This document shows positions 31,853-57,604 of a stretch of DNA of 58,641 nt, in pieces; positions within the stretch are counted from its first letter, which is position 1, and every line of letters begins with the position of its first letter. The notes below the pieces were generated by a model. The model saw nothing but the letters and a program-made list of their open reading frames with translations, had not been told where the DNA came from and did no database searches. Made by a program: the position numbers and the translations under genes. This stretch comes from Thermodesulfovibrionia bacterium. Lineage in GTDB: Bacteria; Nitrospirota; Thermodesulfovibrionia; UBA6902. The stretch is taken from positions 1 through 58,641 of the forward strand of contig CALZMZ010000003.1 in NCBI GenBank assembly GCA_945788685.1, given 5' to 3'.

Positions 31853-32458
31853 ATGACCGATGAAGAAAAAGAAATAAAACAGGGTGAAGAGAGAAGAAGA
31901 TATTTCAGGGTTGATGATGTGATATCTGTAGTTGCAAATCCCATTCATGTTGATAAAGAAAAGAGTGATGAATTTGCAAAGACTATTGCTACATCCCGGG
32001 CATTTTCTCTTGTGGAAGGTCAGAATTTGGATGCAGCTGACAACGATAATTCAGTGCCTCTTGATTCTGACAATAAAAAATTATATGAAATGATGACAGA
32101 ACTGAAAGCAAAACTTGATTTTATCATCAACCAGTTTATGCTGGAAAAAGAAGGGTTGAATAATCCGGAAAAGAAGTTTGTTAACATCAGTGCGTCCGGA
32201 ATCAGGTTCACTGTCGATCATCCCGTGAATGAGGGTGACATAATGGATATAAAGCTTCTTTTGCCTACATACCCCCCCGTAGCTGTCTTTGCCTATGGAG
32301 AAGTATTAAGAGCAGTTCCTCTGGACAATGGAAAGTATGATGTAGCTCTTGAGTATCTCAACATGTCTGAATCAGTAAAAAACGAAATTATACAGTATGC
32401 CTTTGCGCATCAGCGGGATACAATCCGCAAAACAAAGAGCGCGGAGAATAATGAATAA
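31853..32458 (+). CDS. PilZ-domain c-di-GMP receptor with a long insertion between its binding motifs
   Basis: 201-aa ORF. RRxxxR is at residues 14-19 ('RRRYFR') and (D/N)xSxxG at residues 111-116 ('NISASG'). Its stop overlaps the downstream motA-like start (ATGAATAA). Confidence 0.75.
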   Translation: MTDEEKEIKQGEERRRYFRVDDVISVVANPIHVDKEKSDEFAKTIATSRAFSLVEGQNLDAADNDNSVPLDSDNKKLYEMMTELKAKLDFIINQFMLEKEGLNNPEKKFVNISASGIRFTVDHPVNEGDIMDIKLLLPTYPPVAVFAYGEVLRAVPLDNGKYDVALEYLNMSESVKNEIIQYAFAHQRDTIRKTKSAENNE

Positions 32459-35655: not shown

Positions 35656-36681
35656 TTAGAAAACCGGATTCCATCCTTTTTTATCAATTACAGGTGAAAA
35701 GTCGTTTTCAGAAGCATCCCCGGTCCGGCTTTCCTTGGGGGAGGATGGAGCAGTTTCAGGCTTTTTATCGATTTTCGGTTCTTCGATAACAACCTTGATT
35801 GAATCTTTATCGTTATTACCCCTGGCCGTAACTGTTGATTTGTCTATTATTTGCAATAGTTCCTTTGACATTTTCTTTGCAGGGTCATTGTCGTTTATTA
35901 ACGGGTTTTTAGGTTTCTTCTTCTGGGGGAACTTAAGAATGATGCTTATCCTCCTGTTTCGGGCATCATTCGGGTCCTCCTTTATGAGTGGATCAGTGTC
36001 AGCAAACCCTGCTACACTGACAAGTCTTTCAGGATCGAGCCCATTAGCTTCAAGTTCTCTTCTCGCTGAAGATGCCCTTTCAGTGGAAAGTTCCCAGTTA
36101 CTGTAATTTTTTCCTGCAAAGGGCAGAGCGTCTGTATGTCCCTCAATGCTGACCCGATTTTTAATGGATTTGATATTTTCAGCAATTATGCTCAGGATCT
36201 CGCTGGCCTTTGAAGTCATTTTATTACTTCCGCGCTGGAACATGGTACTGCCTTCATTGTCTGTAAGGTGTATCCTAATTCCATCCCGGACTTTCTCTAT
36301 TAACACCTGGTCTTCAAGATCACCCAGTTTGTCTGAAATCGCTTTACTTAAGCTTTCCTGAATTTCATCAGCAGCATCATCATCTCCCTCCCGTTCTATC
36401 AATACCTTTTCATTTCCCTGTCCAGCTGTATTGAATAAATCTGCTTCTGCACCGCCAAGGAAGGAACTTCCGCTTTCTGAATAGAGGCTGAAATTCTTAT
36501 AATATTCAGATATACGTGCCCTTTTCTCGTCAGAGACCATTGAAAGAAGCCATAAAAGCAGAAAAAAGGCCATCATGGCAGTGACAAAATCAGCGTAAGC
36601 TACTTTCCATGCTCCGCCATGATGACCGCCACCTGTAACTTTCTTTATTTTCTTTATAATAACAGGCTTGCGATTGCTCAT
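35656..36681 (-). CDS. motB: flagellar stator protein MotB with Lys/Pro-rich C-terminal extension
   Basis: 341-aa ORF with 'AWKVAYADFVTAMMAFFLLLWLL' and the OmpA-like 'SIEGHTDALPF...SNWELSTERA...NRRISIIL'. Its start overlaps the motA stop. Confidence 0.85.
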   Translation of the reverse strand: MSNRKPVIIKKIKKVTGGGHHGGAWKVAYADFVTAMMAFFLLLWLLSMVSDEKRARISEYYKNFSLYSESGSSFLGGAEADLFNTAGQGNEKVLIEREGDDDAADEIQESLSKAISDKLGDLEDQVLIEKVRDGIRIHLTDNEGSTMFQRGSNKMTSKASEILSIIAENIKSIKNRVSIEGHTDALPFAGKNYSNWELSTERASSARRELEANGLDPERLVSVAGFADTDPLIKEDPNDARNRRISIILKFPQKKKPKNPLINDNDPAKKMSKELLQIIDKSTVTARGNNDKDSIKVVIEEPKIDKKPETAPSSPKESRTGDASENDFSPVIDKKGWNPVF

Positions 36682-37526
36682 GACCTGAGGGATTCTTCAA
36701 GTTCTGTGAAACCCGGCTTTGCTACGGAAGGGATGACCCGTCTCGCATATTCAACAGCTATTTGCGGTGCAGCGCCTCCAACGAATGACACCAATGCTAT
36801 CTTGATTACTTTAAAAGCGAGCATATCTTCTTCAGCAATATGCTCAAGATTTGTGCCGATAGGTCCGACAAATCCATAACTTAAAAGAACACCGAGAAAT
36901 GTCCCGACCAGTGCCGCACCAATGCTTGCTCCTAATATTTCGGGCGGTTCGCTGACCTTTCCCATAGTTATTACGACGCCTAGAACAGCTGCAACAATTC
37001 CCAGGGCAGGAAGTCCATCCGCAATCTTATTAATACTGTGAGCAGGAATCAGTGCCTCATGATGATGGGCCTCCATCTCGATTTCCATAACATCATCAAG
37101 CTCATGAGGTGTGACATTGGTCGATATTATTACTTTGAGATTATCGCACAGGTAATTCAGGGCATGATGATTTTTGAGAAGGCTCGGGTACTTGGTGAAT
37201 ATGGGACTTTCAGCAGGATTTTCAATATCACCTTCAATGGCTATAAGTCCCTCTTTTCTCATTTTTGAAAAAACCGCATTCAGCACACCTAAAATTTCAA
37301 GGAATTCTCCCTTGCTGGTACTCTTTGATGAAAGCACTCTCATCATGTTCTTAAGCACCAAGCCAAGAATTTTCCCCGGTGACGAAATAATGAATGCTCC
37401 TACTGCGGCCCCACCGATTATAAGCAGTTCCGTAGGTTGAAACAGAACATGCAGGTTACCGTGATGCAGGACGTAACCACCAATAACAGATCCAAAAACA
37501 ACAATCAGGCCTATTATTACGAGCAT
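36678..37526 (-). CDS. motA: flagellar stator protein MotA
   Basis: 282-aa ORF starting 'MLVIIGLIVVFGSVIGGYVLHHGNL'. 'GLPALGIVAAVLGVVITM' and 'GAALVGTFLGVLLSYGFVGP' are classical MotA motifs. SD 'aggaagg' is present. Confidence 0.9.
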   Translation of the reverse strand: MLVIIGLIVVFGSVIGGYVLHHGNLHVLFQPTELLIIGGAAVGAFIISSPGKILGLVLKNMMRVLSSKSTSKGEFLEILGVLNAVFSKMRKEGLIAIEGDIENPAESPIFTKYPSLLKNHHALNYLCDNLKVIISTNVTPHELDDVMEIEMEAHHHEALIPAHSINKIADGLPALGIVAAVLGVVITMGKVSEPPEILGASIGAALVGTFLGVLLSYGFVGPIGTNLEHIAEEDMLAFKVIKIALVSFVGGAAPQIAVEYARRVIPSVAKPGFTELEESLRS

Positions 37527-37587
37527 GTCATTCCTTCCTGATATTTCATAAATTTTCTTCCAGGTTCCGAGATCCTTCTAGGTATAT

Positions 37588-37614
37588 ATTCGGTCAATGA
37601 CAATCAAAACTTTA
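37588..37614 (-). promoter_or_regulatory. sigma28 (FliA)-like promoter for motAB
   Basis: The reverse complement reads TAAAGTTT-tgattgtcatt-GACCGAAT, compared with the consensus TAAAGTTT-N11-GCCGATAA. The -35 element is exact. The -10 keeps the CCGA core. It lies ~60 nt upstream of the motA ATG. Confidence 0.4.
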
Positions 37615-37761
37615 ACCTGGCTTATAATCTCTGGTTCACCATAACATATTTAATTAAAAGGAAAAAATATATTTGTACTTACGTGAAGAACCTGATGTAC
37701 TTGAATTAAGTGATTACATCTATTAATGTTATTTAATCTATATTCTAAGGAGGTTATTGGT

Positions 37762-37950
37762 ATGGAATGCAGGATGGAGAAACATAAGCCCGATTGCAAC
37801 TGCACGTATGAGCCGTGCAGCAGAAAGCATAAATGCTGCGAATGTCTGCATTATCACAGAAGGAACAATGAACTTCCTGCCTGTTTTTTTAACAGTGAAC
37901 AGGAAGCAACATACGACAGGTCTGTCCGTTATTTTATAAGCACACGGTAA
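37762..37950 (+). CDS. small Cys-rich protein (conserved hypothetical)
   Basis: The start at '[32 protein letters not shown]...LPACFF' is preceded by SD 'aaggagg'. There are nine Cys in about 50 residues. Confidence 0.55.
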
Positions 37951-38163
37951 AAATATGAGCTGTCAGATGATAGACTTTATTGCCGGCAGAATGATATCTT
38001 GTGACACGGAATCTCACTTTAAATTCGGCAAACCGACATTTGGTAATTAGTAATATTTATGTCTGGTTCATGTCTGCAAAAAAAAGTATTGATAATTTTT
38101 TCAAAAAAGTGCAGATTAGTATAGTTCAATGATGAACGCATAAACCTAATGTAGGAGGAGAGA

Positions 38164-38607
38164 ATGGCAAAAAAGAAAGCAGCGAAGAAGAAGGCAGTAA
38201 AGAAAAAAGCAGCAAAGAAAAAGGCAGCTAAGAAGAAAGTAGCTAAGAAGAAAACAGCCAAGAAAAAAACCACTAAGAAAAAAGCCGCAAAGAAAAAGGT
38301 TGCAAAGAAGAAAGTAGCGAAGAAGAAAACTGCAAAGAAAAAAGCCGCTAAAAAGAAGAGAAAACCTAATCCTGCATTTATGAGGCCTGTGAGTATCAGT
38401 GATGCACTGGCACAGATAGTCGGCAGCAAACCTATTCCCAGGACCGAGGTCACAAAAAAGCTCTGGGCATACATTAAGAAGAACAAGCTGCAGGACTCTG
38501 TCAATAAGAGAATGATCAACGCTGATGCCAAGTTGAAAGCAGTTCTCAAGAAAGCCAAGGTATCAATGTTTGAGATGACCAAACTGGTCAGTAAGCATCT
38601 CAGCTAG
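38164..38607 (+). CDS. SWIB/MDM2-domain protein with histone-H1-like Lys/Ala repeat N-terminus
   Basis: 147-aa ORF with SD 'aggagg'. The N-terminus is ~12 tandem A(A/V)KKK pentapeptides. The C-terminal 'RPVSISDALAQIVGSKPIPRTEVTKKLWAYIKKNKLQD' is SWIB-like. Confidence 0.8.
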   Translation: MAKKKAAKKKAVKKKAAKKKAAKKKVAKKKTAKKKTTKKKAAKKKVAKKKVAKKKTAKKKAAKKKRKPNPAFMRPVSISDALAQIVGSKPIPRTEVTKKLWAYIKKNKLQDSVNKRMINADAKLKAVLKKAKVSMFEMTKLVSKHLS

Positions 38608-39335: not shown

Positions 39336-39701
39336 ATGAAAAAACAGATGGAAAGAAATATTTATCAGGAAGAAACAGCAGAACGTCCTGCAAGGAAATC
39401 TGCTCAGTTTCCCATTACTCTAATTGTAGGTGACAACAGGTATGCCGGCAATATAATGAATATATCAGTGAACGGAGTCGCAATATTTGTGGATACCCAT
39501 TTCCCTGAAAAAACTATAGATTGTAAAAAAAGAGAAATCCTTACACTTGAGGTACAATCTCCACTTGGAAAATTAATAAAGTTGAAGTGCAGGATCATAT
39601 GGCTCCGCTTTCAACAGTATTCGGAAGGCCTTACAACCAGTATGGGAATGGAAATTATAGATCCGCCAGAAGATTTCATAAACCTGTTCAAAAATTTATA
39701 G
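39336..39701 (+). CDS. single-domain PilZ protein (N-terminal Arg motif degenerate)
   Basis: 121-aa ORF with 'NISVNGVAIF' matching (D/N)xSxxG. The upstream 'ERPARKS' is only an RxxR. The size and beta-rich pattern fit PilZ. Confidence 0.6.
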   Translation: MKKQMERNIYQEETAERPARKSAQFPITLIVGDNRYAGNIMNISVNGVAIFVDTHFPEKTIDCKKREILTLEVQSPLGKLIKLKCRIIWLRFQQYSEGLTTSMGMEIIDPPEDFINLFKNL

Positions 39702-40254: not shown

Positions 40255-40340
40255 GCCGGAGTGGTGGAATGGCAGACGCGGTGGACTCAAAATCCATTGT
40301 CCGCAAGGACGTGCGGGTTCAACTCCCGCCTCCGGCACCA
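40255..40340 (+). tRNA. tRNA-Leu (anticodon CAA), CCA encoded
   Basis: The acceptor stem pairs GCCGGAG with CTCCGGC. The anticodon loop is CTCAAAA, the variable arm is long, and the T-arm is GCGGGTTCAACTCCCGC. The sequence closely resembles E. coli tRNA-Leu(CAA). Confidence 0.9.
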
Positions 40341-46084: not shown

Positions 46085-46119
46085 AATTACGAATTACGAA
46101 TTACAAATTTCAAATAATG
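46085..46119. repeat. heptanucleotide tandem array (AATTACG x5, degenerating)
   Basis: The units are aattacg aattacg aattaca aatttca aataatg. The array fills the kdsD-kdsC spacer, and the last unit contains the kdsC ATG. Confidence 0.8.
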
Positions 46120-46644
46120 GATAAAAAAATTATAGAAAAGGCCAGCAAAATTAAACTGCTTATCCTTGATGTAGATGGTGTTATGACAGACGGCAGTATC
46201 ATTCTTGACAATGAGGGGAATGAACTGAAGAGGTTTCATGTAAGGGATGGTCATGGTATTAAAATGCTTGGCAAGGCCGGTATTGAGACCGCTATCATAA
46301 CAGGCAGGCAATCAAAAGTAGTTGAGTTGCGGGCAAAAGAACTCGGGATAAAGGATGTATATCAGAAGATATTTGTTAAATCAGAAATATATGAGCAGTT
46401 ACGCAAAAAATATGAGTGTGAGAATGAAAACATTGCTTTTATGGGGGACGACGTTGTAGATCAGGAACTTTTTAAAAGGGCAGGTCTGACTGCTGCTCCG
46501 GCAGATGCTGAAGAATCTGCAAAAAAATGGGCCGATATAGTATCCGGCAAAAATGGCGGCAGGGGAGCGGTCAGGGAATTCGCAGATATTATTCTTAAAG
46601 CAACAGGCAAGTGGGAACAGGTCTCCGGGGAATCCCTTGGTTAA
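46117..46644 (+). CDS. kdsC: KDO-8-phosphate phosphatase (HAD, YrbI family)
   Basis: 175-aa ORF with HAD motif I 'LLILDVDGVMTDG'. 'AIITGRQS' and 'AFMGDDVVD' are present. Confidence 0.85.
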   Translation: MDKKIIEKASKIKLLILDVDGVMTDGSIILDNEGNELKRFHVRDGHGIKMLGKAGIETAIITGRQSKVVELRAKELGIKDVYQKIFVKSEIYEQLRKKYECENENIAFMGDDVVDQELFKRAGLTAAPADAEESAKKWADIVSGKNGGRGAVREFADIILKATGKWEQVSGESLG

Positions 46645-47179
46645 TCTGCCCACCATAATTACTGTCAGCAGAATCATCATAATTCTTCCATTTGTTCTTG
46701 TTGCTCCCCAAAGTCCGTTTTGGGGCGCCATACTCTTTTCAATAGCAGCCATTACTGACTACTTTGACGGATACTTTGCGCGCAAAACAAAACAGGTCAC
46801 GAAATTCGGAATTCTCCTTGATCCCATAGCTGACAAGCTCCTGGTAATGTCAGCATTAATTCTGTTTGTAGACATGGAATTGATACCGGCCTGGATAGCC
46901 ATAGTAATCATTACGCGGGAGTTCATTGTTACCGGATTGAGAATAGTTGCATTAACAATGGACATAGTCATACCTGCTGAAATGGGTGGTAAAGTCAAAG
47001 TGACCGCTCAGATTGCATCCATAATAACGCTTCTGGTTGACAGGACATTTATTGCCATTGATTTTTATGGTTTGGGAATTCTGTTACTCTGGATTGCCAT
47101 GATTGTGGGACTTATTTCAGGTATTCAGTATTTTATTTTATTCTGGAAAACGATAGACATGACAGACAGGGATTCTTGA
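46637..47179 (+). CDS. pgsA: CDP-diacylglycerol--glycerol-3-phosphate 3-phosphatidyltransferase
   Basis: The CDP-alcohol phosphatidyltransferase motif DGxxAR-x8-G-x3-D-x3-D appears as 'DGYFARKTKQVTKFGILLDPIAD'. The start is placed at TTG 46637 ('LVNLPTIITVSR'), overlapping the kdsC stop. The ORF-track ATG at 46553 would overlap kdsC by 92 nt. Confidence 0.8.
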   Translation: MVNLPTIITVSRIIIILPFVLVAPQSPFWGAILFSIAAITDYFDGYFARKTKQVTKFGILLDPIADKLLVMSALILFVDMELIPAWIAIVIITREFIVTGLRIVALTMDIVIPAEMGGKVKVTAQIASIITLLVDRTFIAIDFYGLGILLLWIAMIVGLISGIQYFILFWKTIDMTDRDS

Positions 47180-48646: not shown

Positions 48647-48887
48647 GACGGAATTATATTATTTGCATTTTCAGTCCCTCACCACAGGCCCACACAAATC
48701 TTATTGAGCAGATCGACAAATTAGAGGTTTTTAAAACATTGATTATATTTTTCAATTGCACAAATAGATCATTTAGTGATAAATTATAGATGTAGGCGTT
48801 TTCTATCGTTGATCATTTAAAAAGCTCTCTTTCATAAATAAAATACTGATGTTAAGTGAACCAGACTGTGATTGAGTCTGAAACATT

Positions 48888-49577
48888 ATGAAAAACAGAA
48901 GAAACTATTACCGCATACTTCAGGTTCAGCCGGATGCTCCTCTTGAAATAATCCGTGCAAGTTATCGCACGATTATGAGGGAATTGATGGGGCACCCGGA
49001 TTTTGGAGGTGATCATCATGATGCCATTATTTTTAATGAAGCTTATGCGACGTTGAGTGATAGTGTTAAACGTGCTGAATATGACAAAAAATATTTAAAA
49101 TATATTTCTAATAAAACAGCAGATGAATTAAATATCAGAAAAGAGTCTTCTACAAATATTAACGACCCTCTCCGAACAAGACCTTTTACCCGTCAAACAA
49201 AAGATGTTAAGGACAGTCAGGATTATACGGACCTGAAATCAAAAAAAACTCAAAAGGCATATTGTGAGAACTTTTATCGTGCTGTTAATCGTGTGAAAAT
49301 GAAAGGAACAGAGCTGTACTATTTCACCTCTTCAAATAAAAAACGGCAAGCAAAAATACTGGACCTGTCTCCAAAAGGAATTCGTTTTACCAGCACAGAG
49401 AAATTGACTCGTGAGTCAAATATTAAGATAGGATGTTCTTTATTTAAAGCTGAAGCTGAGGTGGTAAATTATAATCAGGACCTCTCAAGTGACAGGCCCG
49501 TTTATTCAGTTGGGGCCCGCTTCCTCAAGGTTAAGTTTAAGAATCAGACAAGCTCTTTTTATTCTAAATTCGTATAA
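48888..49577 (+). CDS. J-domain (DnaJ-like) - PilZ fusion protein
   Basis: 229-aa ORF. The N-terminal J domain reads 'NYYRILQVQPDA...MGHPDFGGD...AYATLSD..KRAEYD' with HPD. The C-terminal PilZ motifs are RxxxR ('YRAVNR') and DxSxxG ('DLSPKG'). Confidence 0.7.
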   Translation: MKNRRNYYRILQVQPDAPLEIIRASYRTIMRELMGHPDFGGDHHDAIIFNEAYATLSDSVKRAEYDKKYLKYISNKTADELNIRKESSTNINDPLRTRPFTRQTKDVKDSQDYTDLKSKKTQKAYCENFYRAVNRVKMKGTELYYFTSSNKKRQAKILDLSPKGIRFTSTEKLTRESNIKIGCSLFKAEAEVVNYNQDLSSDRPVYSVGARFLKVKFKNQTSSFYSKFV

Positions 49578-49584
49578 TTACCAT

Positions 49585-49809
49585 ATAGAATCTGTCCTCA
49601 TATGCCTGCTTGGAGGTATAATTGGCGCCGCTCTCGGTACAGGTTCTGTTGTTGCCATATCGCATCTGAGCAATAAACCCATACTTCTGGCTACTGAATA
49701 TATTGGAATAGCATTGTGCATATCCATTATCGTCGGTATTGTATCGGGCATTTACCCTGCGGCCAGAGCAGCGTCCATGGACCCGGTGGATGCCCTGCGA
49801 TTTGAATAA
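49585..49809 (+). pseudogene. 3' remnant of an FtsX/MacB-type ABC transporter permease gene
   Basis: It encodes only the last ~74 aa, 'IESVLICLLGGIIGAALG...IVGIVSGIYPAARAASMDPVDALRFE', which is the conserved C-terminal helix of FtsX-like permeases. There is no upstream permease or ATPase sequence, and it abuts the stop of the DnaJ-PilZ gene. Confidence 0.7.
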
Positions 49810-49875: not shown

Positions 49876-50412
49876 TTATCTGTATTTCAATCCAACAGAT
49901 ATCCAGAAGAATGGATTTATTACTCTTATTAATGAAGATGCTCTGTTAGACTTGTAAACAGCAATCGCCCGGTCTATATAATCTATTGCTATATCCGGTT
50001 CAATATCATTACGGCCAAGATTGAAAATATTAAGTATCAAATTTATATTTTTGCCGTGTTCCCTGACAGATACCGAAGGGGTAGAGACAGTATAGGTTTT
50101 TATTCCTGCATGACTTATTATTGCGTAAGCATTCTTTATGATCAGATTAATGCTTTTCTTTGCATCTGCTGCTTCCGGCTTTTCATTATACGTACCGGAT
50201 ACCATATTGAGTATGCTGTTATCAAAATATGTTTGCACCAATGACCGAAATTGTGTTAATAATTTTAGTCGTGCCCTGTTTTCCCAGTAGGGTATATCTT
50301 TATAATTTTTTCTTGCCTGCTTCATTAATTTTCTAACGTATTTGTATTCGATCCGTATTTGATATGCAGGATATTTTCTGCCTGTACCTATTATTCGGTC
50401 TGGAAGTCGCAA
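49876..50412 (-). CDS. hypothetical protein
   Basis: 178-aa ORF with a TTG start and an internal ATG alternative at 'MKQARKNY'. No motif was recognised. It is isolated on the reverse strand. Confidence 0.4.
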   Translation of the reverse strand: MRLPDRIIGTGRKYPAYQIRIEYKYVRKLMKQARKNYKDIPYWENRARLKLLTQFRSLVQTYFDNSILNMVSGTYNEKPEAADAKKSINLIIKNAYAIISHAGIKTYTVSTPSVSVREHGKNINLILNIFNLGRNDIEPDIAIDYIDRAIAVYKSNRASSLIRVINPFFWISVGLKYR

Positions 50413-50617
50413 TTCTTGATGTATCGGGCATCAGTCGGACATTTCACGTTTTCGCGCTTTTTGTAATTTATATCACGGATTTTCAATGAAAAAAAAGATT
50501 ATCTTATTACATTAATGACCCGCAACTAATGATGGCAGGAGATTATTGTAATACTCAAGAATACATGAGGATGTTCCGGTAATGTTAATGATATTAATTA
50601 AATTCAGGAGGTAATGT

Positions 50618-51206
50618 ATGCTTAAAAAATGGGGATCAGAAAAAAGTAATGGTAATTCTGATAGTTCTAAAAAGGACATTCAGAAGGATATTGATGATAA
50701 TGCAGAAAATGTGACATCCGATAAAGGCACTGGTGACAGAAAGGTAAATAACATCCTCAAGGGATGCAAAGTAACAGGAAATATCAATGTAACCTGTGAC
50801 ATGGTATTAAGTGGAGATGTGGAAGGTAATATAATGTAAGGGCAATATTGAGTCCGGGAGTGGAGATGTTGACATCAGGGGAGAGTTAAGGAAAGGAAAC
50901 ATAACAACAGGCGGCAATGTATCAATCTCCGGAAAATTCACCGGAGGAGAAGTAAAAGCAAAGGGCAAGATATTTGTAAACTGTGAATTTACAGGTAAGC
51001 TGGAAGGAAATGAGATCGAAATCGGTGCGAATGCTCATGTCAGGGGAGAATTATTTTACACAGAGTATATCTCGGTGGCCAGAGGTGCCAAAGTGGAAGT
51101 ACATCTTTGTCGTATCCCGGATGAGAGTAAAGGAGAAAATAAAACGCAGCAGAAAAAAGTTCCGGACATGAAGCCGCCCGTGAAAGAATTGGTTGGTGTG
51201 AAATAA
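50618..51206 (+). pseudogene. bactofilin (DUF583-type polymer-forming protein) interrupted by a +1 frameshift near 50835-50840
   Basis: Frame 1 (50618-50839) ends 'ILKGCKVTGNINVTCDMVLSGDVEGNIM*'. The +1 frame is open from 50835 to 51206 with no start codon. It continues the beta-helix repeat: 'GNIESGSGDVDIRGEL.KGNITTGGNVSISGKFTGGEVKAKGKIFVN..FTGKLEGNEIEIGANAHVRGEL'. Confidence 0.65.
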
Positions 51207-51460
51207 ATAGAGCAGTACAATGTGAAATGAAATATATTGCTTATGTTTCATCATTATATATAAAAGATTTGCAATTACATAATATGACCTGAATTACAAA
51301 AGCCTTTACAAGTTTTGTAAAGGCTTTTCTTAACTTGATCCTGGATCCCATGCTGTTTTCAATGTAATTTTCATTCACCTCAACTTTTAACTTATAAGTT
51401 GTTATATTTGTGAATGATGAAGGTAATCGGATAGTTGAGAAAATAAAGGAGACTGAAACT

Positions 51461-53578
51461 ATGGCACTTCTCCAGGACATAATGAATGCAGAGAAATGGA
51501 ATCCCGGTATTAAAAAGGATTCCAATGCAAATGATGAAAAAGAAATTACAATTACCAAGGTTGATGGCGATAACATATCTATTGAAGGTTCTTCTCAAAA
51601 CACCACAAAGCATAAAGAATTGAATTCATTGATAATGGAGCAACATCCGGGTGCATTGCAGCACGATACATCTACAGTAGAAAACATCAAGGGATTACAA
51701 TCTTCATCCAGACAAGTATCTGTGAAATCAGCCTCTATAACGGATACAGCTGAAATGAATTTCACTCAACCCAAACCATCTTCGGTCAGCGCCTTTAAGA
51801 CAAAAAAAAGAGTGAGAAAAAACGGTAAGCTGTGGATCTTACTTATGGCAGGCCTCCTCATCAGTATAGTGTCAGGTGCCGGTATGGCTCTATGGCTGTC
51901 AGGCTCTGACAGCAACACGGATAACAGTCTGCAGGCAAACTATGTTGAAAATAGTGATATGGTCTTAAGTGGAGATGATGAAGATTATATTACTGACGAT
52001 GGCGGTATTGCCATGGGAAATGAGAGTGATTTTCCGGATGAAGATCTGTATGCCGTCATGGATGGCGATAATGAACATATTATTGAAGAAGGCGAACTTT
52101 ACAAGGGAAGTGAAAGTGGAATTCTTGATGAAGATCTGTATGCTGTCATGGATGAAAATGATATGGAATTAAATGACATGGAATATGCTGAAGATGATCT
52201 TTCAGATATTGCATTGGAAGATTCTTCTTTTAATGAAGAAATTGCAGTGGCATCAGTTCATGGTAACAAGCCGGGTACGCTTGAAGAAAACGGCGAAATC
52301 ACTATGAAAGAGGAGTCTCCATCAGACGATAAGATAGCAGCTGCTATTTCCTCACTGAAAGAAAATAGAGACAAAGAAATAATAATAGAGAAAGAAGTAC
52401 AGGAAAAACCTGTTACGCCGAAATCCACGGAAAAAGTCAAACAGCCGACGGTAAAGAAGTCATCCTCTGTATTTGCAGAGAAGAAACAATTAACAATAGT
52501 AAAGCCTGTTTCACAAGAAACAGAAGTGAATAAGAAAATATCCGATACAAAAAAATTTACAGTTAATAACGGAACTCAGTCAATAAGCAACAGTGCACAA
52601 AAAACTGATAAACTGGCAAATCAGAAATCAAGTGAAGCTCCAATTACTTCCACAAATAAAGTTCTGGAGCCTCATAAAGCAGAGCCTGTTGAAGTATCTG
52701 TCAAAGAAATACTGCAGCTGGCCCCTGTTAAGTTGAAAGAGTCAATTAAAATACCCGTTAAGACAGCATCAAAGCAGGAAAAGCCTTTTTTCAGTAATAC
52801 TGAGGTTAAAGCTGTACCAGTCGATATTCCTGTGGTTAAAGAAAAAGAAATAACAGCATCGAAACAGAAAAAGACAGCCATTGGCATTACCGGGATTAAT
52901 ACTCTCCCAACCGGGATAGCTTCAGCTAAGGATCATGTTGTGACAGCTTCAAAACAGGATAAACCTTATCCCGGGAATACAAAGATTAAATCTCCTCAAA
53001 CCGGAATATCATCAATTCTCAAGGAAATGAGTGTAAATTATGAGGACCAGTTTAACAGCAATACAAACAACTGGCCGGAATATGACATCAGTAAAGCCTC
53101 TGCAGTCATAGCAAAGGGAGCGTATCACATTGAAAACAGGGTGCGCACAGGTACTCATGCGCTGGTCCACCCTGATGGGGTGCCAATTGATATGGATTTA
53201 ATGATTGATGTTTCAATCGGGTCGGTCCGTAGTTCAGGCAACAATTCTTATGGCTTCATTTTTGGTGCAAAAGATACCAGTAATAATTATGCATTTCTTG
53301 TTAGGAACGGTCAGTTTTATTCAATAGAAAAAATGACTGGAGGTAAAAGTACGGAAATGCGGGGAGGACAGATAGATAACATATTCATAAGCGGGGACTC
53401 TCAAAAGTCAATGAAAATAGTAAAACGGAAGAATATAATCCGTTTTTATATCGATGGTCATCTGATTGATGAAATTGCAGATATTGACTATTTCGGAAAT
53501 AAGATAGGGTTTCTTATAAGAGGAAAAGCAAGGATGTCTGTTGACCGTACACGAACGCAGATCAGGTTTCAGAAATAA
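51461..53578 (+). CDS. single-pass membrane protein with acidic and Lys-rich repeat regions and a C-terminal ~180-aa domain shared with 53728-54399
   Basis: The ATG at 51461 has SD 'aaggag'; the ORF track starts at GTG 51410. The TM helix is 'LWILLMAGLLISIVSGAGMALWL'. Repeats are 'DEDLYAVMD' x2 and 'TASKQ.KP' x3. The C-terminal domain runs 'NNWPEYD...YGFIFGAKDTSNNYAFLV...IRFYIDGHLIDE'. Confidence 0.6.
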   Translation: MALLQDIMNAEKWNPGIKKDSNANDEKEITITKVDGDNISIEGSSQNTTKHKELNSLIMEQHPGALQHDTSTVENIKGLQSSSRQVSVKSASITDTAEMNFTQPKPSSVSAFKTKKRVRKNGKLWILLMAGLLISIVSGAGMALWLSGSDSNTDNSLQANYVENSDMVLSGDDEDYITDDGGIAMGNESDFPDEDLYAVMDGDNEHIIEEGELYKGSESGILDEDLYAVMDENDMELNDMEYAEDDLSDIALEDSSFNEEIAVASVHGNKPGTLEENGEITMKEESPSDDKIAAAISSLKENRDKEIIIEKEVQEKPVTPKSTEKVKQPTVKKSSSVFAEKKQLTIVKPVSQETEVNKKISDTKKFTVNNGTQSISNSAQKTDKLANQKSSEAPITSTNKVLEPHKAEPVEVSVKEILQLAPVKLKESIKIPVKTASKQEKPFFSNTEVKAVPVDIPVVKEKEITASKQKKTAIGITGINTLPTGIASAKDHVVTASKQDKPYPGNTKIKSPQTGISSILKEMSVNYEDQFNSNTNNWPEYDISKASAVIAKGAYHIENRVRTGTHALVHPDGVPIDMDLMIDVSIGSVRSSGNNSYGFIFGAKDTSNNYAFLVRNGQFYSIEKMTGGKSTEMRGGQIDNIFISGDSQKSMKIVKRKNIIRFYIDGHLIDEIADIDYFGNKIGFLIRGKARMSVDRTRTQIRFQK

Positions 53579-53727
53579 ACAGATATGCTGATGTATTTCA
53601 CCATAAGTACAACTAAACATAACAGGGTAAAACCTTCAATATACATTAAAGAAAAGTTCATATATGCATAGTTGTGAGCTGTGTCCGGCTTACTGCCGGA
53701 GTAAATTAAAAAATGAGAGGTGATCAG

Positions 53728-54399
53728 ATGAGAAAAATTGGCTGCATAATTCTTTCAGGTTTTTTAATGGCTGTTTTAATAACGGCACATGCATCTTTTG
53801 CACAGGATAATGGGTCCGGGATATCTTCTACTTTAAGAGAGATGTCTGTCGTGTATGAGGACAAGTTCGATACACACTCCAACAACTGGCCTGAATATGA
53901 AAACAGTTTATCTTCGGCCCTGATAAATGATGGAGAATACCATATTGAAAATAATGAAAAAGGGAGCCTGCATGTTGTTCTGCATCCTAATGGTATTTCC
54001 ATGGGAATGGACTCCATGATTCAGGTCTCGATCAGTGATATTCGGGGGGCAGGAAGGTATTCTTACGGGTTTGTCTTTGGTGCTAAAGACACGTCCAATA
54101 ACTATTCACTCCAGGTCACGAACGAAAATCTGTATATCGTCGAAAAAATGGTCAATGGAAAACGTAAAGAAGTTGCAAGAGGGCCGATCGACAATGTTTT
54201 TTCCAGCGACAGTTTTGGCAAGACCCTTAAGCTGGTAAAACAGCGGGATAAAATAAGGTTTTATGTCGATGATAACTATGTTGACGAGCTGCTCATTTCC
54301 GACGCCAAATTTCCGGGAGACCTGGTCGGGTTCCTTGTCAGTGGCAGGGCAAAAATATCGGTAGACTGGACGAGGACACAGATTAAATACAAAGGGTAG
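53728..54399 (+). CDS. secreted protein consisting of the shared ~180-aa domain (possible lectin/jelly-roll fold)
   Basis: The signal peptide is 'MRKIGCIILSGFLMAVLITAHASFAQ'. The rest aligns by eye with the C-terminus of the upstream ORF: 'NNWPEYE', 'YGFVFGAKDTSNNYSLQV', 'IRFYVDDNYVDE', 'VDWTRTQIKY'. Confidence 0.65.
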   Translation: MRKIGCIILSGFLMAVLITAHASFAQDNGSGISSTLREMSVVYEDKFDTHSNNWPEYENSLSSALINDGEYHIENNEKGSLHVVLHPNGISMGMDSMIQVSISDIRGAGRYSYGFVFGAKDTSNNYSLQVTNENLYIVEKMVNGKRKEVARGPIDNVFSSDSFGKTLKLVKQRDKIRFYVDDNYVDELLISDAKFPGDLVGFLVSGRAKISVDWTRTQIKYKG

Positions 54400-54538: not shown

Positions 54539-57500
54539 TTATGAATTTAAAATATTTCTTTCAATTGCTTCTCCGGCAATATGATCTCCGAGTGCCCGGT
54601 AAGCCTCAAACTGGGCGTCATCAAAGAATTGATCTGCTGTTGTCTGATGAGGGAAGTCCGCGTTGTCTTTTTGGTAATTCTTCACATGAACAGGCAGTTT
54701 ATATTTCCTTTTCACATTCTTTCCATATTTTTCTTTTTCTAATACGATTTCAGGCTCACTCAATGATGATTTTAGATAGATAAGTCTTCCGTCCTTTTCT
54801 TCATCATATTCTACATCATTCCCTTTATGGGGTGGATATTTGATAGTTCCTATGGCAACGCTGCTCTTACTCAATTGATACGTTCCGTCCTTATTTTTCT
54901 CAGGAACAATTTTGGACAGATCGATATCAATCTTTATGTTCTCTTCAATATAGGCCATTCTCACGACATTGTTAAAGGATGTAAAACTGTAATTGCCGTC
55001 ATCCTCACCATCGCAAATGACGATCAACTTGACGCGCCTTTGCAGGAGAGGCAGAAACCCGAGATTATCGCCTGTGTGTCCGCCATCGGATACATTAACA
55101 AGACGCTTACGTGCATCACACAAATCAAATAGCTCATATCCCAGCCACATTGGCCAGTATGTTGGCCAGTGTATCGGTTTTTTCACGCGTTTATTGGTTT
55201 TTTTTGTCAGACAACACCAGAGATTTACAATCCATGTTGGCCAGTAAATTGGTTCTGTCTCAGTTTTAGAGCCTCTTTTTCTAACGTAGCTCCAGTGATC
55301 TGTATCCCACATTCGCCAGTATATTGGTTTTTTTTCTGGATTAACTTTTATCTTATTACAGTAAGCCCATGGATTTGCCATCCAGTAACCGAGTCTGATA
55401 TTAAAAAGAGTTGCAGCAAACGCCTGAGCGCCGAAGGAATGAAAGCCCATGGCCGAGCCTGCAGCAGCAGCGGAAATTGTCATGGCCCTTGCAAGTTTGG
55501 TTTCACCATCACGATACGCGCTTGTCTTGACATAGCCCGTTACTCGGGAACCAACATAGTTTTTACTGAAAATGAAATGTTCTGATAGCATCCTCTTTCT
55601 GTTTAGCTCTTTGGAGCCCTGAAGGTTTAGGGCAGCGACAATAATATGATATGGACCGCGATTGTTATTTTCCCCTATATCCATTAATTTGAGATCGTCA
55701 TGATTCCGGATATTTTTCAATGGCATGCCCTGCTGTTTACACTTATCATCTTTTGCCCGTCTGATACGGGCGTCAGTCTTCAGATAAGCCTCGGTCAGAC
55801 GGTCTCGATAGAAATAATGGGGGGAAACCCTGTTTGAATCAACTATGATACCCAGTCCGCTGAATATAAGAAAGGCAACAACAGCGATCACTGATTCAAA
55901 CCAGGGTGATAAGAAGCGAAAGACCGGGTCAAGGTAAATGTGATGTGTGATTATTTTTGACACAACATCAAAACTGAGGGCAAGGAACAGAAATACAAGC
56001 AGTGAAAGGAGCGGCTTGCGTATTGTATCCATCATTTTACTGAATTTACCACCCTGACCTGTCTTCTGTTTCAGGACTAGAAAACTAAACAAAAGAGTTA
56101 TGGCTGTCCACCAGAATTTCATCGAAAAGTAGCTGAGTGAGAACAGGAATACTATTATTACCGGTACGATTATAGCGAGAACAATCCCGTAGAACGTAGC
56201 GCCCTGGATTGCACTGTAGAGGGAGCGATGGACCCGGTCTACTTCATCTTCAGATTTAAAACACAATCCCGCGTGAACAACCAACAGGGATATAATTTTG
56301 CCGCCAAATGCATAGCTCAGGGGGAGAAACAATACAGATAGTTGGTAAGGGTCTTCATGTGTCCATTGATACGTTAATGCAGCAATTATCGTGGCAATCA
56401 CTGCCACAATAACAGAGTAAATATTCAATCCGTGAATAAATTTAATTTCATAGTGGTCCTCAATATTAAATCCAGCCTTTGTATCCATGGTTGGATTTGG
56501 AGCATTCTTATTAATTTTTTCCCGTATTATATTTGCACGATAAATAAAAGATAAAGTCGTAATAAATCCAAGCAGAATAAAAAAAATATGAACTTTCCAA
56601 ATTTGTGGGTATCCTGTATAGAACATATTATATAGCGGTACGCCAATCCGTGAGTACCCCCATGCTTTCAGTTCATTTAATAGATATTCCGTGCTGGACT
56701 CTTCCACGTTGCTTGCGTGATTAAGAAGCGATTTTTGATGCTCTGTAGAGACAAGGGGATGAGACAGTTTTTGCTGCTTGGAAGAATTATCGAAATTAAG
56801 CGATTTCCCCAGAGTTTCCAGGAAATTGTCAGTACCTTTGGAGAACTCTATGTCCTTGTATCGCTTTAATTTATTAACAACATCATCAGGAACACCCTCA
56901 ATGGTTAAATATGATAGTGTCTTGTCGGTGATAATATATCTGTATTTTACGTCATAATTGAGTTCGTCTAACATTTTAAGAGGGCTGCCTGCTGCTAAAA
57001 TAAGTAAAAAATGTATGAGAGAAGTGGCCATGATGATTAACAGCGTATACAGGACTAAATGATGGAAGATGCCGGTTGTAAGTGTACCGACTACACGCTG
57101 CAGGCCGCGGCTGAGAATGTCCTTCCGTGGAAGAATATACTCGCCATGAGTTCTCAAGTGATGGATTTGATGCCGAACACTGAGGCTGGCATCTTCACCT
57201 GTTTCATATGATACTACCTTGCCTGATTCATCAATTTTTTCTAAATCAACAAAAGGAGAGTTTTCAGGATCAACCCCGGTACCATCTGTTGCGCCAGAAG
57301 CATCTTGTGTTAACAAAGAAGTCAAACAGCTGCCAATATACCCACCTCCGGAAACTGTGCTCAGATAGTCAAATCTTCTAAATATCTTCTCCCTGATGAG
57401 TTTCTGCATCATTCCCAGACAGAGGGTTGCCGATCGAATGCCTCCACCTGAAAAACAGATACCCAAGGCGTCCTTTGAATCTTCGATTGTATCTTGTATG

Positions 57501-57604
57501 TTATTCTTTGCACGACGCTTGTTGATGTATTCAATTTCAGAATCAATAACTGCCTGCAAATCATCTGTATAAAAGTCATTTTTTGGATTAGTTTCAGAGT
57601 TCAT
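54539..57604 (-). CDS. patatin/cPLA2-like phospholipase with a large multi-TM insertion between the catalytic Ser and Asp motifs
   Basis: 1021-aa ORF. The oxyanion motif is 'FSGGGIRSA', the nucleophile elbow is 'STVSGGGY' and the catalytic Asp motif is 'VSDGGHTGDNLG'. About 400 aa of hydrophobic helices separate Ser from Asp. Family-typical 'FYRDRLTEAYL' and 'NIRLGYWMANP' are present. Confidence 0.8.
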   Translation of the reverse strand: MNSETNPKNDFYTDDLQAVIDSEIEYINKRRAKNNIQDTIEDSKDALGICFSGGGIRSATLCLGMMQKLIREKIFRRFDYLSTVSGGGYIGSCLTSLLTQDASGATDGTGVDPENSPFVDLEKIDESGKVVSYETGEDASLSVRHQIHHLRTHGEYILPRKDILSRGLQRVVGTLTTGIFHHLVLYTLLIIMATSLIHFLLILAAGSPLKMLDELNYDVKYRYIITDKTLSYLTIEGVPDDVVNKLKRYKDIEFSKGTDNFLETLGKSLNFDNSSKQQKLSHPLVSTEHQKSLLNHASNVEESSTEYLLNELKAWGYSRIGVPLYNMFYTGYPQIWKVHIFFILLGFITTLSFIYRANIIREKINKNAPNPTMDTKAGFNIEDHYEIKFIHGLNIYSVIVAVIATIIAALTYQWTHEDPYQLSVLFLPLSYAFGGKIISLLVVHAGLCFKSEDEVDRVHRSLYSAIQGATFYGIVLAIIVPVIIVFLFSLSYFSMKFWWTAITLLFSFLVLKQKTGQGGKFSKMMDTIRKPLLSLLVFLFLALSFDVVSKIITHHIYLDPVFRFLSPWFESVIAVVAFLIFSGLGIIVDSNRVSPHYFYRDRLTEAYLKTDARIRRAKDDKCKQQGMPLKNIRNHDDLKLMDIGENNNRGPYHIIVAALNLQGSKELNRKRMLSEHFIFSKNYVGSRVTGYVKTSAYRDGETKLARAMTISAAAAGSAMGFHSFGAQAFAATLFNIRLGYWMANPWAYCNKIKVNPEKKPIYWRMWDTDHWSYVRKRGSKTETEPIYWPTWIVNLWCCLTKKTNKRVKKPIHWPTYWPMWLGYELFDLCDARKRLVNVSDGGHTGDNLGFLPLLQRRVKLIVICDGEDDGNYSFTSFNNVVRMAYIEENIKIDIDLSKIVPEKNKDGTYQLSKSSVAIGTIKYPPHKGNDVEYDEEKDGRLIYLKSSLSEPEIVLEKEKYGKNVKRKYKLPVHVKNYQKDNADFPHQTTADQFFDDAQFEAYRALGDHIAGEAIERNILNS

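Follow-up and report, generated by a model that had tools for sequence, protein, structure and literature searches.

The window analysed here is a stretch of 58,641 nucleotides from the genome of a Thermodesulfovibrionia bacterium of the phylum Nitrospirota (GenBank assembly GCA_945788685.1, contig CALZMZ010000003.1, positions 1 to 58,641). Its forward strand carries, at 48888-49577, an open reading frame for a protein of 229 amino acids, with an ATG at 48888 and a TAA at 49575-49577. The product, here called J-PilZ, joins a J domain to a PilZ domain. The start codon is supported by the N-terminus MKNRRNYYRIL, which is common to all relatives in a 41-sequence alignment. The protein begins with the J domain, continues with a disordered linker of about 50 residues and ends in a C-terminal six-stranded barrel. 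Its features are as follows:

48888..49577, + strand: whole J-PilZ gene, from the ORF list; 486 full-length homologues; single copy in the genome
48903..49085, + strand: J domain, residues 6-66, with model helices at 7-10, 19-32, 43-56 and 59-83 (Pfam PF00226, PDB matches, AlphaFold)
48897..48932, + strand: N-terminal signature R-R-N-Y-Y-R-I-L-Q-V-Q-P, residues 4-15; family-specific, with invariant positions in the alignment
48993..49001, + strand: HPD tripeptide H36, P37, D38, read from the sequence; invariant in the 41-sequence alignment
49137..49271, + strand: disordered linker, about residues 84-128, of low pLDDT; position of the family's CxxC...CxxC ribbon, lost here
49278..49292, + strand: RxxxR motif, R131-A-V-N-R135, just before barrel strand 1; invariant in both alignments
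49362..49379, + strand: DxSxxG motif, D159-L-S-P-K-G164, in the turn between strands 2 and 3; invariant in both alignments
49278..49538, + strand: PilZ domain, residues 131-217, a six-stranded barrel (AlphaFold, Foldseek, hhalign)
49539..49574, + strand: conserved C-terminal tail, residues 218-229, consensus G-S/T-F-x-S, from the alignment; in the place of the canonical PilZ alpha-helix

The G+C content of the gene is 36.7%, against 41.9% for the genome. Upstream of it lies the series kdsD-kdsC-pgsA-plsY-queC, in which the pgsA-like ORF (46553-47179) and the end of the kdsC-like one (46117-46644) have about 90 bases in common as listed (46553-46644); pgsA probably starts at a more downstream position. 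Eight bases past the J-PilZ stop codon begins an orphan fragment of 74 codons (49585-49809, + strand), the C-terminal part of an FtsX/MacB-type permease (Pfam FtsX, 28.4 bits) with no upstream permease or ATPase sequence, which looks like a deletion or rearrangement scar. Beyond it are three ORFs without a Pfam match, at 49876-50412 (- strand, 178 aa, G+C 34.8%), 51410-53578 (+ strand, 722 aa, 38.7%) and 53713-54399 (+ strand, 228 aa, 42.4%). The first two are below the genome in G+C and the third is not, and the segment as a whole (49876-54399) may be variable or acquired. A further ORF of 1021 aa at 54539-57604 (- strand) has a weak partial match to patatin-like phospholipases at its N-terminus (27.3 bits, just below the cut-off).

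Two other ORFs of the window match Pfam PilZ, at 31853-32458 (+ strand, 37.1 bits) and 39336-39701 (+ strand, 33.2 bits), so that an earlier note on this DNA, made from the sequence alone, was right to count the fusion as the third PilZ protein in the window. Rfam, applied to the whole window at its gathering threshold, returned a tRNA at 40255-40337 and nothing else. A hairpin at 48862-48880, just 5' of the start codon, was dismissed (z = -2.2, not conserved in the related loci L001-L003), and a scan for promoters and terminators gave no more matches than the shuffled expectation.

The surroundings of the gene are not conserved. When the ORFs of 80 related loci and of the window were clustered by BLASTP, no neighbour family was common to more than 19 loci, and the largest cluster, of 19 loci, consists of generic histidine-kinase and receiver proteins whose distances vary. 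Even the locus of a 67%-identical relative (L001) shows no synteny. The lack of a conserved neighbour means that the neighbourhood offers neither an operon partner nor a client candidate.

Assignment of the two domains

The earlier note had read a J domain with its HPD tripeptide from the segment 'LMGHPDFGGD' (residues 33-42) and had named Pfam as the check. Pfam DnaJ (PF00226) matches residues 6-66 of the window protein with 39.8 bits (E 4.8e-10), well above its cut-off of 27.8, and a search of the genome locates the domain at 48903-49085. The HPD, at residues 36-38, is invariant in 41 relatives and is flanked by helices on either side in the AlphaFold model, in which the J domain is helical with a pLDDT of about 85-94. 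A profile of the family, compared with the PDB, matched solved J domains with E-values down to 1e-11, and matched 5nro_B, the DnaJ chain of a DnaK complex, at 3.5e-9. Helix I holds the family's N-terminal signature (residues 4-15), with an arginine pattern like RRxxxR; in the 41-sequence alignment (A1), the residues N3, R5, N6, Y8, R9, L11, Q12, V13, Q14, D16 and A17 are invariant.

The remainder of a canonical DnaJ is missing, as the same note had stated. Neither the CXXCXGXG zinc-finger nor DnaJ_C gave a Pfam match in the window protein at E-values up to 10, and the NCBIfam models for DnaJ, CbpA and TopJ matched the J domain alone, with scores far below their cut-offs. With no G/F region, no CXXCXGXG zinc-finger domain and no DnaJ_C domains, the protein falls into class C (type III) of the J-domain proteins. 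Pfam likewise found no HSP70 domain in J-PilZ.

For the C-terminal half, the note had claimed both PilZ motifs at normal spacing and proposed that the domain be checked by profile or by structure prediction. The motifs are where they were said to be ('YRAVNR', residues 130-135; 'DLSPKGIRF', residues 159-167), with 23 residues between R135 and D159. The Pfam check gave a divided result, as the window protein on its own scores 17.7 bits against PilZ (PF07238; E 0.0045, residues 146-214), below the cut-off of 22.5. Because of this shortfall, the assignment was put to four further tests.

Firstly, R131, R135, D159, S161 and G164 are invariant in alignment A1, in which mean column identity is 39%, and again in a second alignment, A2; the HPD and both PilZ motifs occur together in 256 of the 271 relatives fetched. 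Secondly, Pfam PilZ matches 35 of 41 relatives at E-values of 0.01 or less (best E 1.2e-7). Thirdly, hhalign compared a profile built from the last 104 residues with 17 Pfam-passing PilZ domains from the host genome, giving a probability of 86% (E 4.8e-6, 82 columns) with both motifs in register. Against the PDB, the C-terminal profile found the PilZ domain of Alg44 (4rt0/4rt1) at an E-value of about 0.005, in an alignment that pairs RxxxR with RxxxR and DxSxxG with DLSAGG.

The fourth test was structural. AlphaFold2, given the family alignment, predicts six strands between residues 136 and 217 with a pLDDT of 86-92, and the top Foldseek matches of the model in the PDB are PilZ domains: BcsA (4hg6, 4p00), MrkH, Alg44 (4rt0, 4xrn), YcgR (5y6g), PA0012 (8u0i) and PlzA, with E-values around 1e-4 and a probability of 1.00. 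TM-scores, normalised to target length, are 0.53-0.73 for single-domain targets, and most of the top structures were solved with c-di-GMP bound (4p00, 5y6g, 4rt0, 8u0i, 5kgo). The linker (residues 82-131) is disordered in the model, with a pLDDT below 50, and the pTM of 0.45 denotes low confidence in the relative placement of the domains. A canonical PilZ domain ends in a C-terminal alpha-helix (Galperin and Chou, bioRxiv 10.1101/814665); the AlphaFold model has none after strand 6. The corresponding residues form a tail, of which 222-229 have a pLDDT below 50, and F217, G222, F224 and S226 are nearly invariant in the family, the window protein having S at 222. Taken together, the invariant motifs, the Pfam matches of the relatives, the hhalign comparison and the predicted fold with its Foldseek matches identify the C-terminal half as a PilZ domain. 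The earlier proposal thus stands on the relatives' profile matches and on the predicted barrel, and fails for the Pfam score of the window protein taken alone.

A conserved fusion with a dispensable ribbon and a patchy distribution

Full-length homologues of the window protein number 486 in a collection of 5.8 billion proteins. Relatives cover 98-100% of the query with E-values down to 6e-91, and their homology runs the whole length of the protein, including the linker and the G-S/T-F-x-S tail. An exhaustive search of 1.84 billion representatives returned 2729 matches at E-values of 0.001 or less, 591 at 1e-10 or less and 57 at 1e-30 or less. J-PilZ is therefore confirmed as a real, conserved fusion: with 486 full-length homologues and with the HPD, R131, R135, D159, S161 and G164 all invariant, it lies far beyond chance.

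The consensus order of the family is J domain, linker with a CPxC...CxxC four-cysteine ribbon, PilZ domain and tail. A strict pattern finds the ribbon in 190 of 256 family members. The window protein has only one cysteine in its linker and lacks the CxxC-x(8-20)-CxxC arrangement. In a maximum-likelihood tree of 84 family members, it falls into a clade of 14 ribbon-less proteins (support 100/97), with the ribbon-bearing P0010, P0012 and P0016 as its sister group. Since this clade is nested among ribbon-bearing lineages, the tree identifies the absence of the ribbon in it as a derived loss, and at least five such losses are forced by well-supported branches of the tree. As judged from these sequences, the J and PilZ domains are the constant core and minimal unit of the family, while the putative zinc ribbon is dispensable; that the pair stayed constant while the ribbon was lost several times suggests that the two domains are selected together. 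What is specific to the window is a ribbon-less variant of the family, and this variant would make a convenient minimal construct.

Some long members of the family (300-400 aa, for example P0130, P0134, P0143, P0140 and P0271) contain a second J-like copy. The HPD is missing from this copy in all 31 long members, and the copies nonetheless retain N-(Q/R)-R-N-Y-Y-R-(I/L)-L-x-V-Q-P-D-A almost letter for letter. The preservation of the signature in copies without an HPD suggests that it is selected for something other than Hsp70 stimulation.

The family occurs in at least 262 species genomes from many phyla, according to a pattern-seeded scan in which each species was represented by a single genome. 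Carriers include Nitrospirota, Acidobacteriota, anammox Planctomycetota (Scalindua), Calditrichota, Deferribacteres, KSB1, Desulfuromonadales, Gemmatimonadota and many Gammaproteobacteria. The best 80 loci include a single named culture-collection strain, Legionella waltersii ATCC 51914 (L059), and one other record that is not labelled as a MAG; none of them is from Myxococcus. Within the phylum of the window, the family was present in five of 401 sampled genomes, that of the window included, with one copy each, and it was found in one of nine other genomes of the host's taxonomic family. This sparse and patchy spread, together with the adjacent permease scar, fits a candidate accessory gene that is mobile by transfer.

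Possible function and comparison with known systems

The host assembly (2.6 Mb, 84% complete) contains the partners that a c-di-GMP-dependent co-chaperone would need. Contig C24 carries an operon of hrcA, grpE, dnaK and a gene for a CbpA/DnaJ-like J protein, with DnaK at 36247-38175 (- strand). A second full-length DnaK, 75% identical to the first, is encoded by an orphan gene on contig C11 (13569-15494, + strand), and the canonical dnaJ lies on contig C101 (3426-4505, + strand), followed by an HspR/MerR-like gene. Both Hsp70 genes are on other contigs than the J-PilZ gene. The c-di-GMP signalling of the host genome is unusually dense, its 2.6 Mb containing 32 GGDEF domains and 31 matches to PilZ. 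Given DnaK, GrpE, DnaJ and so many GGDEF domains, both the chaperone and the ligand should be available to J-PilZ.

Two side observations concern these genes. A single-domain PilZ gene (2081-2476, + strand) lies two genes upstream of the canonical dnaJ on contig C101, making a second loose association of PilZ and chaperone genes in the host genome. Two full-length Hsp70 genes are present in all five J-PilZ carriers of the phylum sample, and four of five non-carrier relatives have one. A link between J-PilZ and the second DnaK paralogue is only a weak lead, however, because, in the full phylum sample, genomes outside the window's class normally have two such genes and because, although only nine of 135 genomes within the class have two, the two carriers among those nine are kin.

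It is established that J domains with an HPD bind Hsp70 in its ATP state and set off hydrolysis, that a class C J protein derives its specificity from a second module, and that PilZ domains act as ligand-dependent protein-interaction switches. Against this background, a c-di-GMP-responsive Hsp70 co-chaperone is a plausible and the most economical functional reading, and we consider it on balance probable, by a modest degree, that J-PilZ, as a J-domain protein of class C, directs DnaK to a client in a manner controlled by c-di-GMP. The PilZ barrel would bind c-di-GMP through RxxxR (131-135) and DxSxxG (159-164). By sequence and model, RxxxR lies precisely at the entry of the flexible linker into the barrel, and ligand binding may order this junction, creating or exposing a partner-binding surface as in other PilZ effectors. 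The tethered J domain would dock on ATP-bound DnaK through its HPD loop and trigger ATP hydrolysis, whereby DnaK would lock onto whatever the PilZ domain holds. The predicted outcome is DnaK action on a specific client that depends on the level of c-di-GMP. Binding of c-di-GMP, stimulation of DnaK, the coupling of the two and the existence of a specific client are all points that we infer. In favour of this moderately probable reading, we count the invariant motifs and the folds of both domains, the partners in the host and the precedent of a PilZ-DnaK protein in Myxococcus xanthus. Against it, we count the Pfam PilZ score below cut-off, the missing C-terminal helix, the lack of a conserved neighbour pointing to a client, the deletions of M. 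xanthus PilZ-DnaJ genes without a phenotype and the fact that intact motifs are no guarantee of binding.

An unlikely alternative, which still deserves serious weight, is that c-di-GMP gates the J domain itself. A ligand at the junction of linker and barrel would clamp or release the J domain, so that Hsp70 stimulation would be switched on or off without a dedicated client, possibly with the involvement of the R4-R5-x-x-x-R9 signature. Junction binding of this kind is familiar from the two-domain PilZ proteins YcgR and PlzD, in which the ligand closes the domains onto each other, and RxxxR of J-PilZ is likewise located at the interdomain junction. The invariance of NRRNYYR[IL]LxVQPDA across phyla and its retention in the 31 second J-like copies that lack an HPD also speak for a role of this kind. 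However, the low inter-domain confidence of the AlphaFold model (pTM 0.45) and the disordered linker speak against it. R5 and R9 lie within or beside helix I, unlike the flexible loop of PilZ, and the signature may simply stabilise that helix; any contact between the domains is putative.

It also seems rather improbable that the C-terminal half is a PilZ-like barrel that does not bind c-di-GMP and serves as a constitutive protein-protein adaptor, bringing DnaK to a partner. Non-binding PilZ adaptors do exist, that of the type IV pilus being one, and such an adaptor would accord with the sub-threshold Pfam score and the absence of the C-terminal helix. Intact motifs do not settle the matter, since PlpA has them and shows no detectable binding (PMC8316039). 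Yet non-binding PilZ domains normally lose their motifs, whereas the five motif residues here are invariant across phyla at an overall identity of 35-40%, and the heavy c-di-GMP signalling in the host genome is a further argument against a ligand-free domain.

Quite improbable, in our estimate, is an arrangement in which c-di-GMP acts as an intramolecular staple, the R4-R5-x-x-x-R9 signature and the PilZ motifs RxxxR and DxSxxG binding the ligand jointly; even so, were it to hold, the ligand would directly occlude or expose the Hsp70-activating face of the J domain, and J-PilZ would be the first small-molecule-gated J domain, with a direct c-di-GMP input into the Hsp70 cycle. The idea of a CbpA-like nucleoid-associated co-chaperone, suggested by the name 'curved DNA-binding protein CbpA' of many relatives in JGI records and by the NCBIfam CbpA match (residues 5-80, E 1.4e-7), was rejected as exceedingly improbable, as that match comprises the J domain only (31.3 bits against a cut-off of 403), the DnaJ_C domains by which CbpA binds DNA and dimerises are absent, and a separate CbpA/DnaJ-like protein is already encoded in the hrcA-grpE-dnaK operon.

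The c-di-GMP-responsive recruitment of DnaK to a client would, if true, offer the messenger a general means of aiming the ATP-driven chaperone at a chosen protein, and would make J-PilZ the first J protein known to be under nucleotide-messenger regulation. Because J-PilZ is a small, soluble-looking protein with clear point-mutant controls, the idea is directly testable in vitro. Full-text literature searches turned up no study of a J-PilZ protein and, in the literature searched, no report of a class C J protein under nucleotide-messenger regulation. The main text of a large survey of J domains makes no mention of PilZ, and a preprint surveying PilZ domains makes none of chaperones.

c-di-GMP controls motility, adhesion, polysaccharide synthesis, transcription and the cell cycle. 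To our knowledge, its links to protein quality control are few, the PilZ-DnaK proteins of Myxococcus being the main example. In M. xanthus, the PilZ-DnaK chaperones CsdK1 and CsdK2 act during heat stress on a specific client, the PilZ protein CdbS, which they stabilise (Seidel et al. 2023, PMC10313047). The earlier note knew of no characterised example of the fusion; this holds for J-PilZ, but PilZ-DnaK has been characterised (PMC10313047). What CsdK1 and CsdK2 share with J-PilZ is the joining of PilZ to a part of the Hsp70 machinery, and with it a link, predicted for J-PilZ, between c-di-GMP signalling and chaperone action. They differ in that their PilZ domain is placed on Hsp70 itself, whereas J-PilZ, which has no Hsp70 domain, has it on a J-domain co-chaperone. 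Of the two CsdK PilZ domains, c-di-GMP binding is predicted for just one (PMC10313047), whereas the binding motifs are invariant throughout the J-PilZ family. Kuzmich et al. 2021 (PMC8316039) also noted M. xanthus proteins that combine PilZ with DnaJ, and took the combination to suggest that they take part in protein folding or quality control; they are likened to J-PilZ here by domain combination. Kuzmich et al. deleted all 24 PilZ genes of M. xanthus and found phenotypes only for plpA, pixA, pixB and pkn1, the deletions of DnaJ-bearing PilZ genes having no motility, exopolysaccharide or development phenotype (PMC8316039).

Among J proteins, J-PilZ most resembles in plan HscB and DjlA, both of class C, which share with it an HPD J domain, a specialised targeting module and the lack of the G/F, zinc-finger and DnaJ C-terminal domains. 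J-PilZ differs from HscB and DjlA in that its targeting module is a predicted second-messenger receptor. Among PilZ proteins, it has its barrel fold and motif placement, with RxxxR on the linker that leads into the barrel and DxSxxG at strands 2-3, in common with the two-domain effectors YcgR, PlzD/VCA0042 and MrkH and with the single-domain PilZ of Alg44, PA0012 and MapZ. Where canonical PilZ effectors have a C-terminal helix, however, the J-PilZ family has the conserved G-S/T-F-x-S tail, and where two-domain PilZ effectors carry an N-terminal barrel of the PilZN type, J-PilZ carries a J domain.
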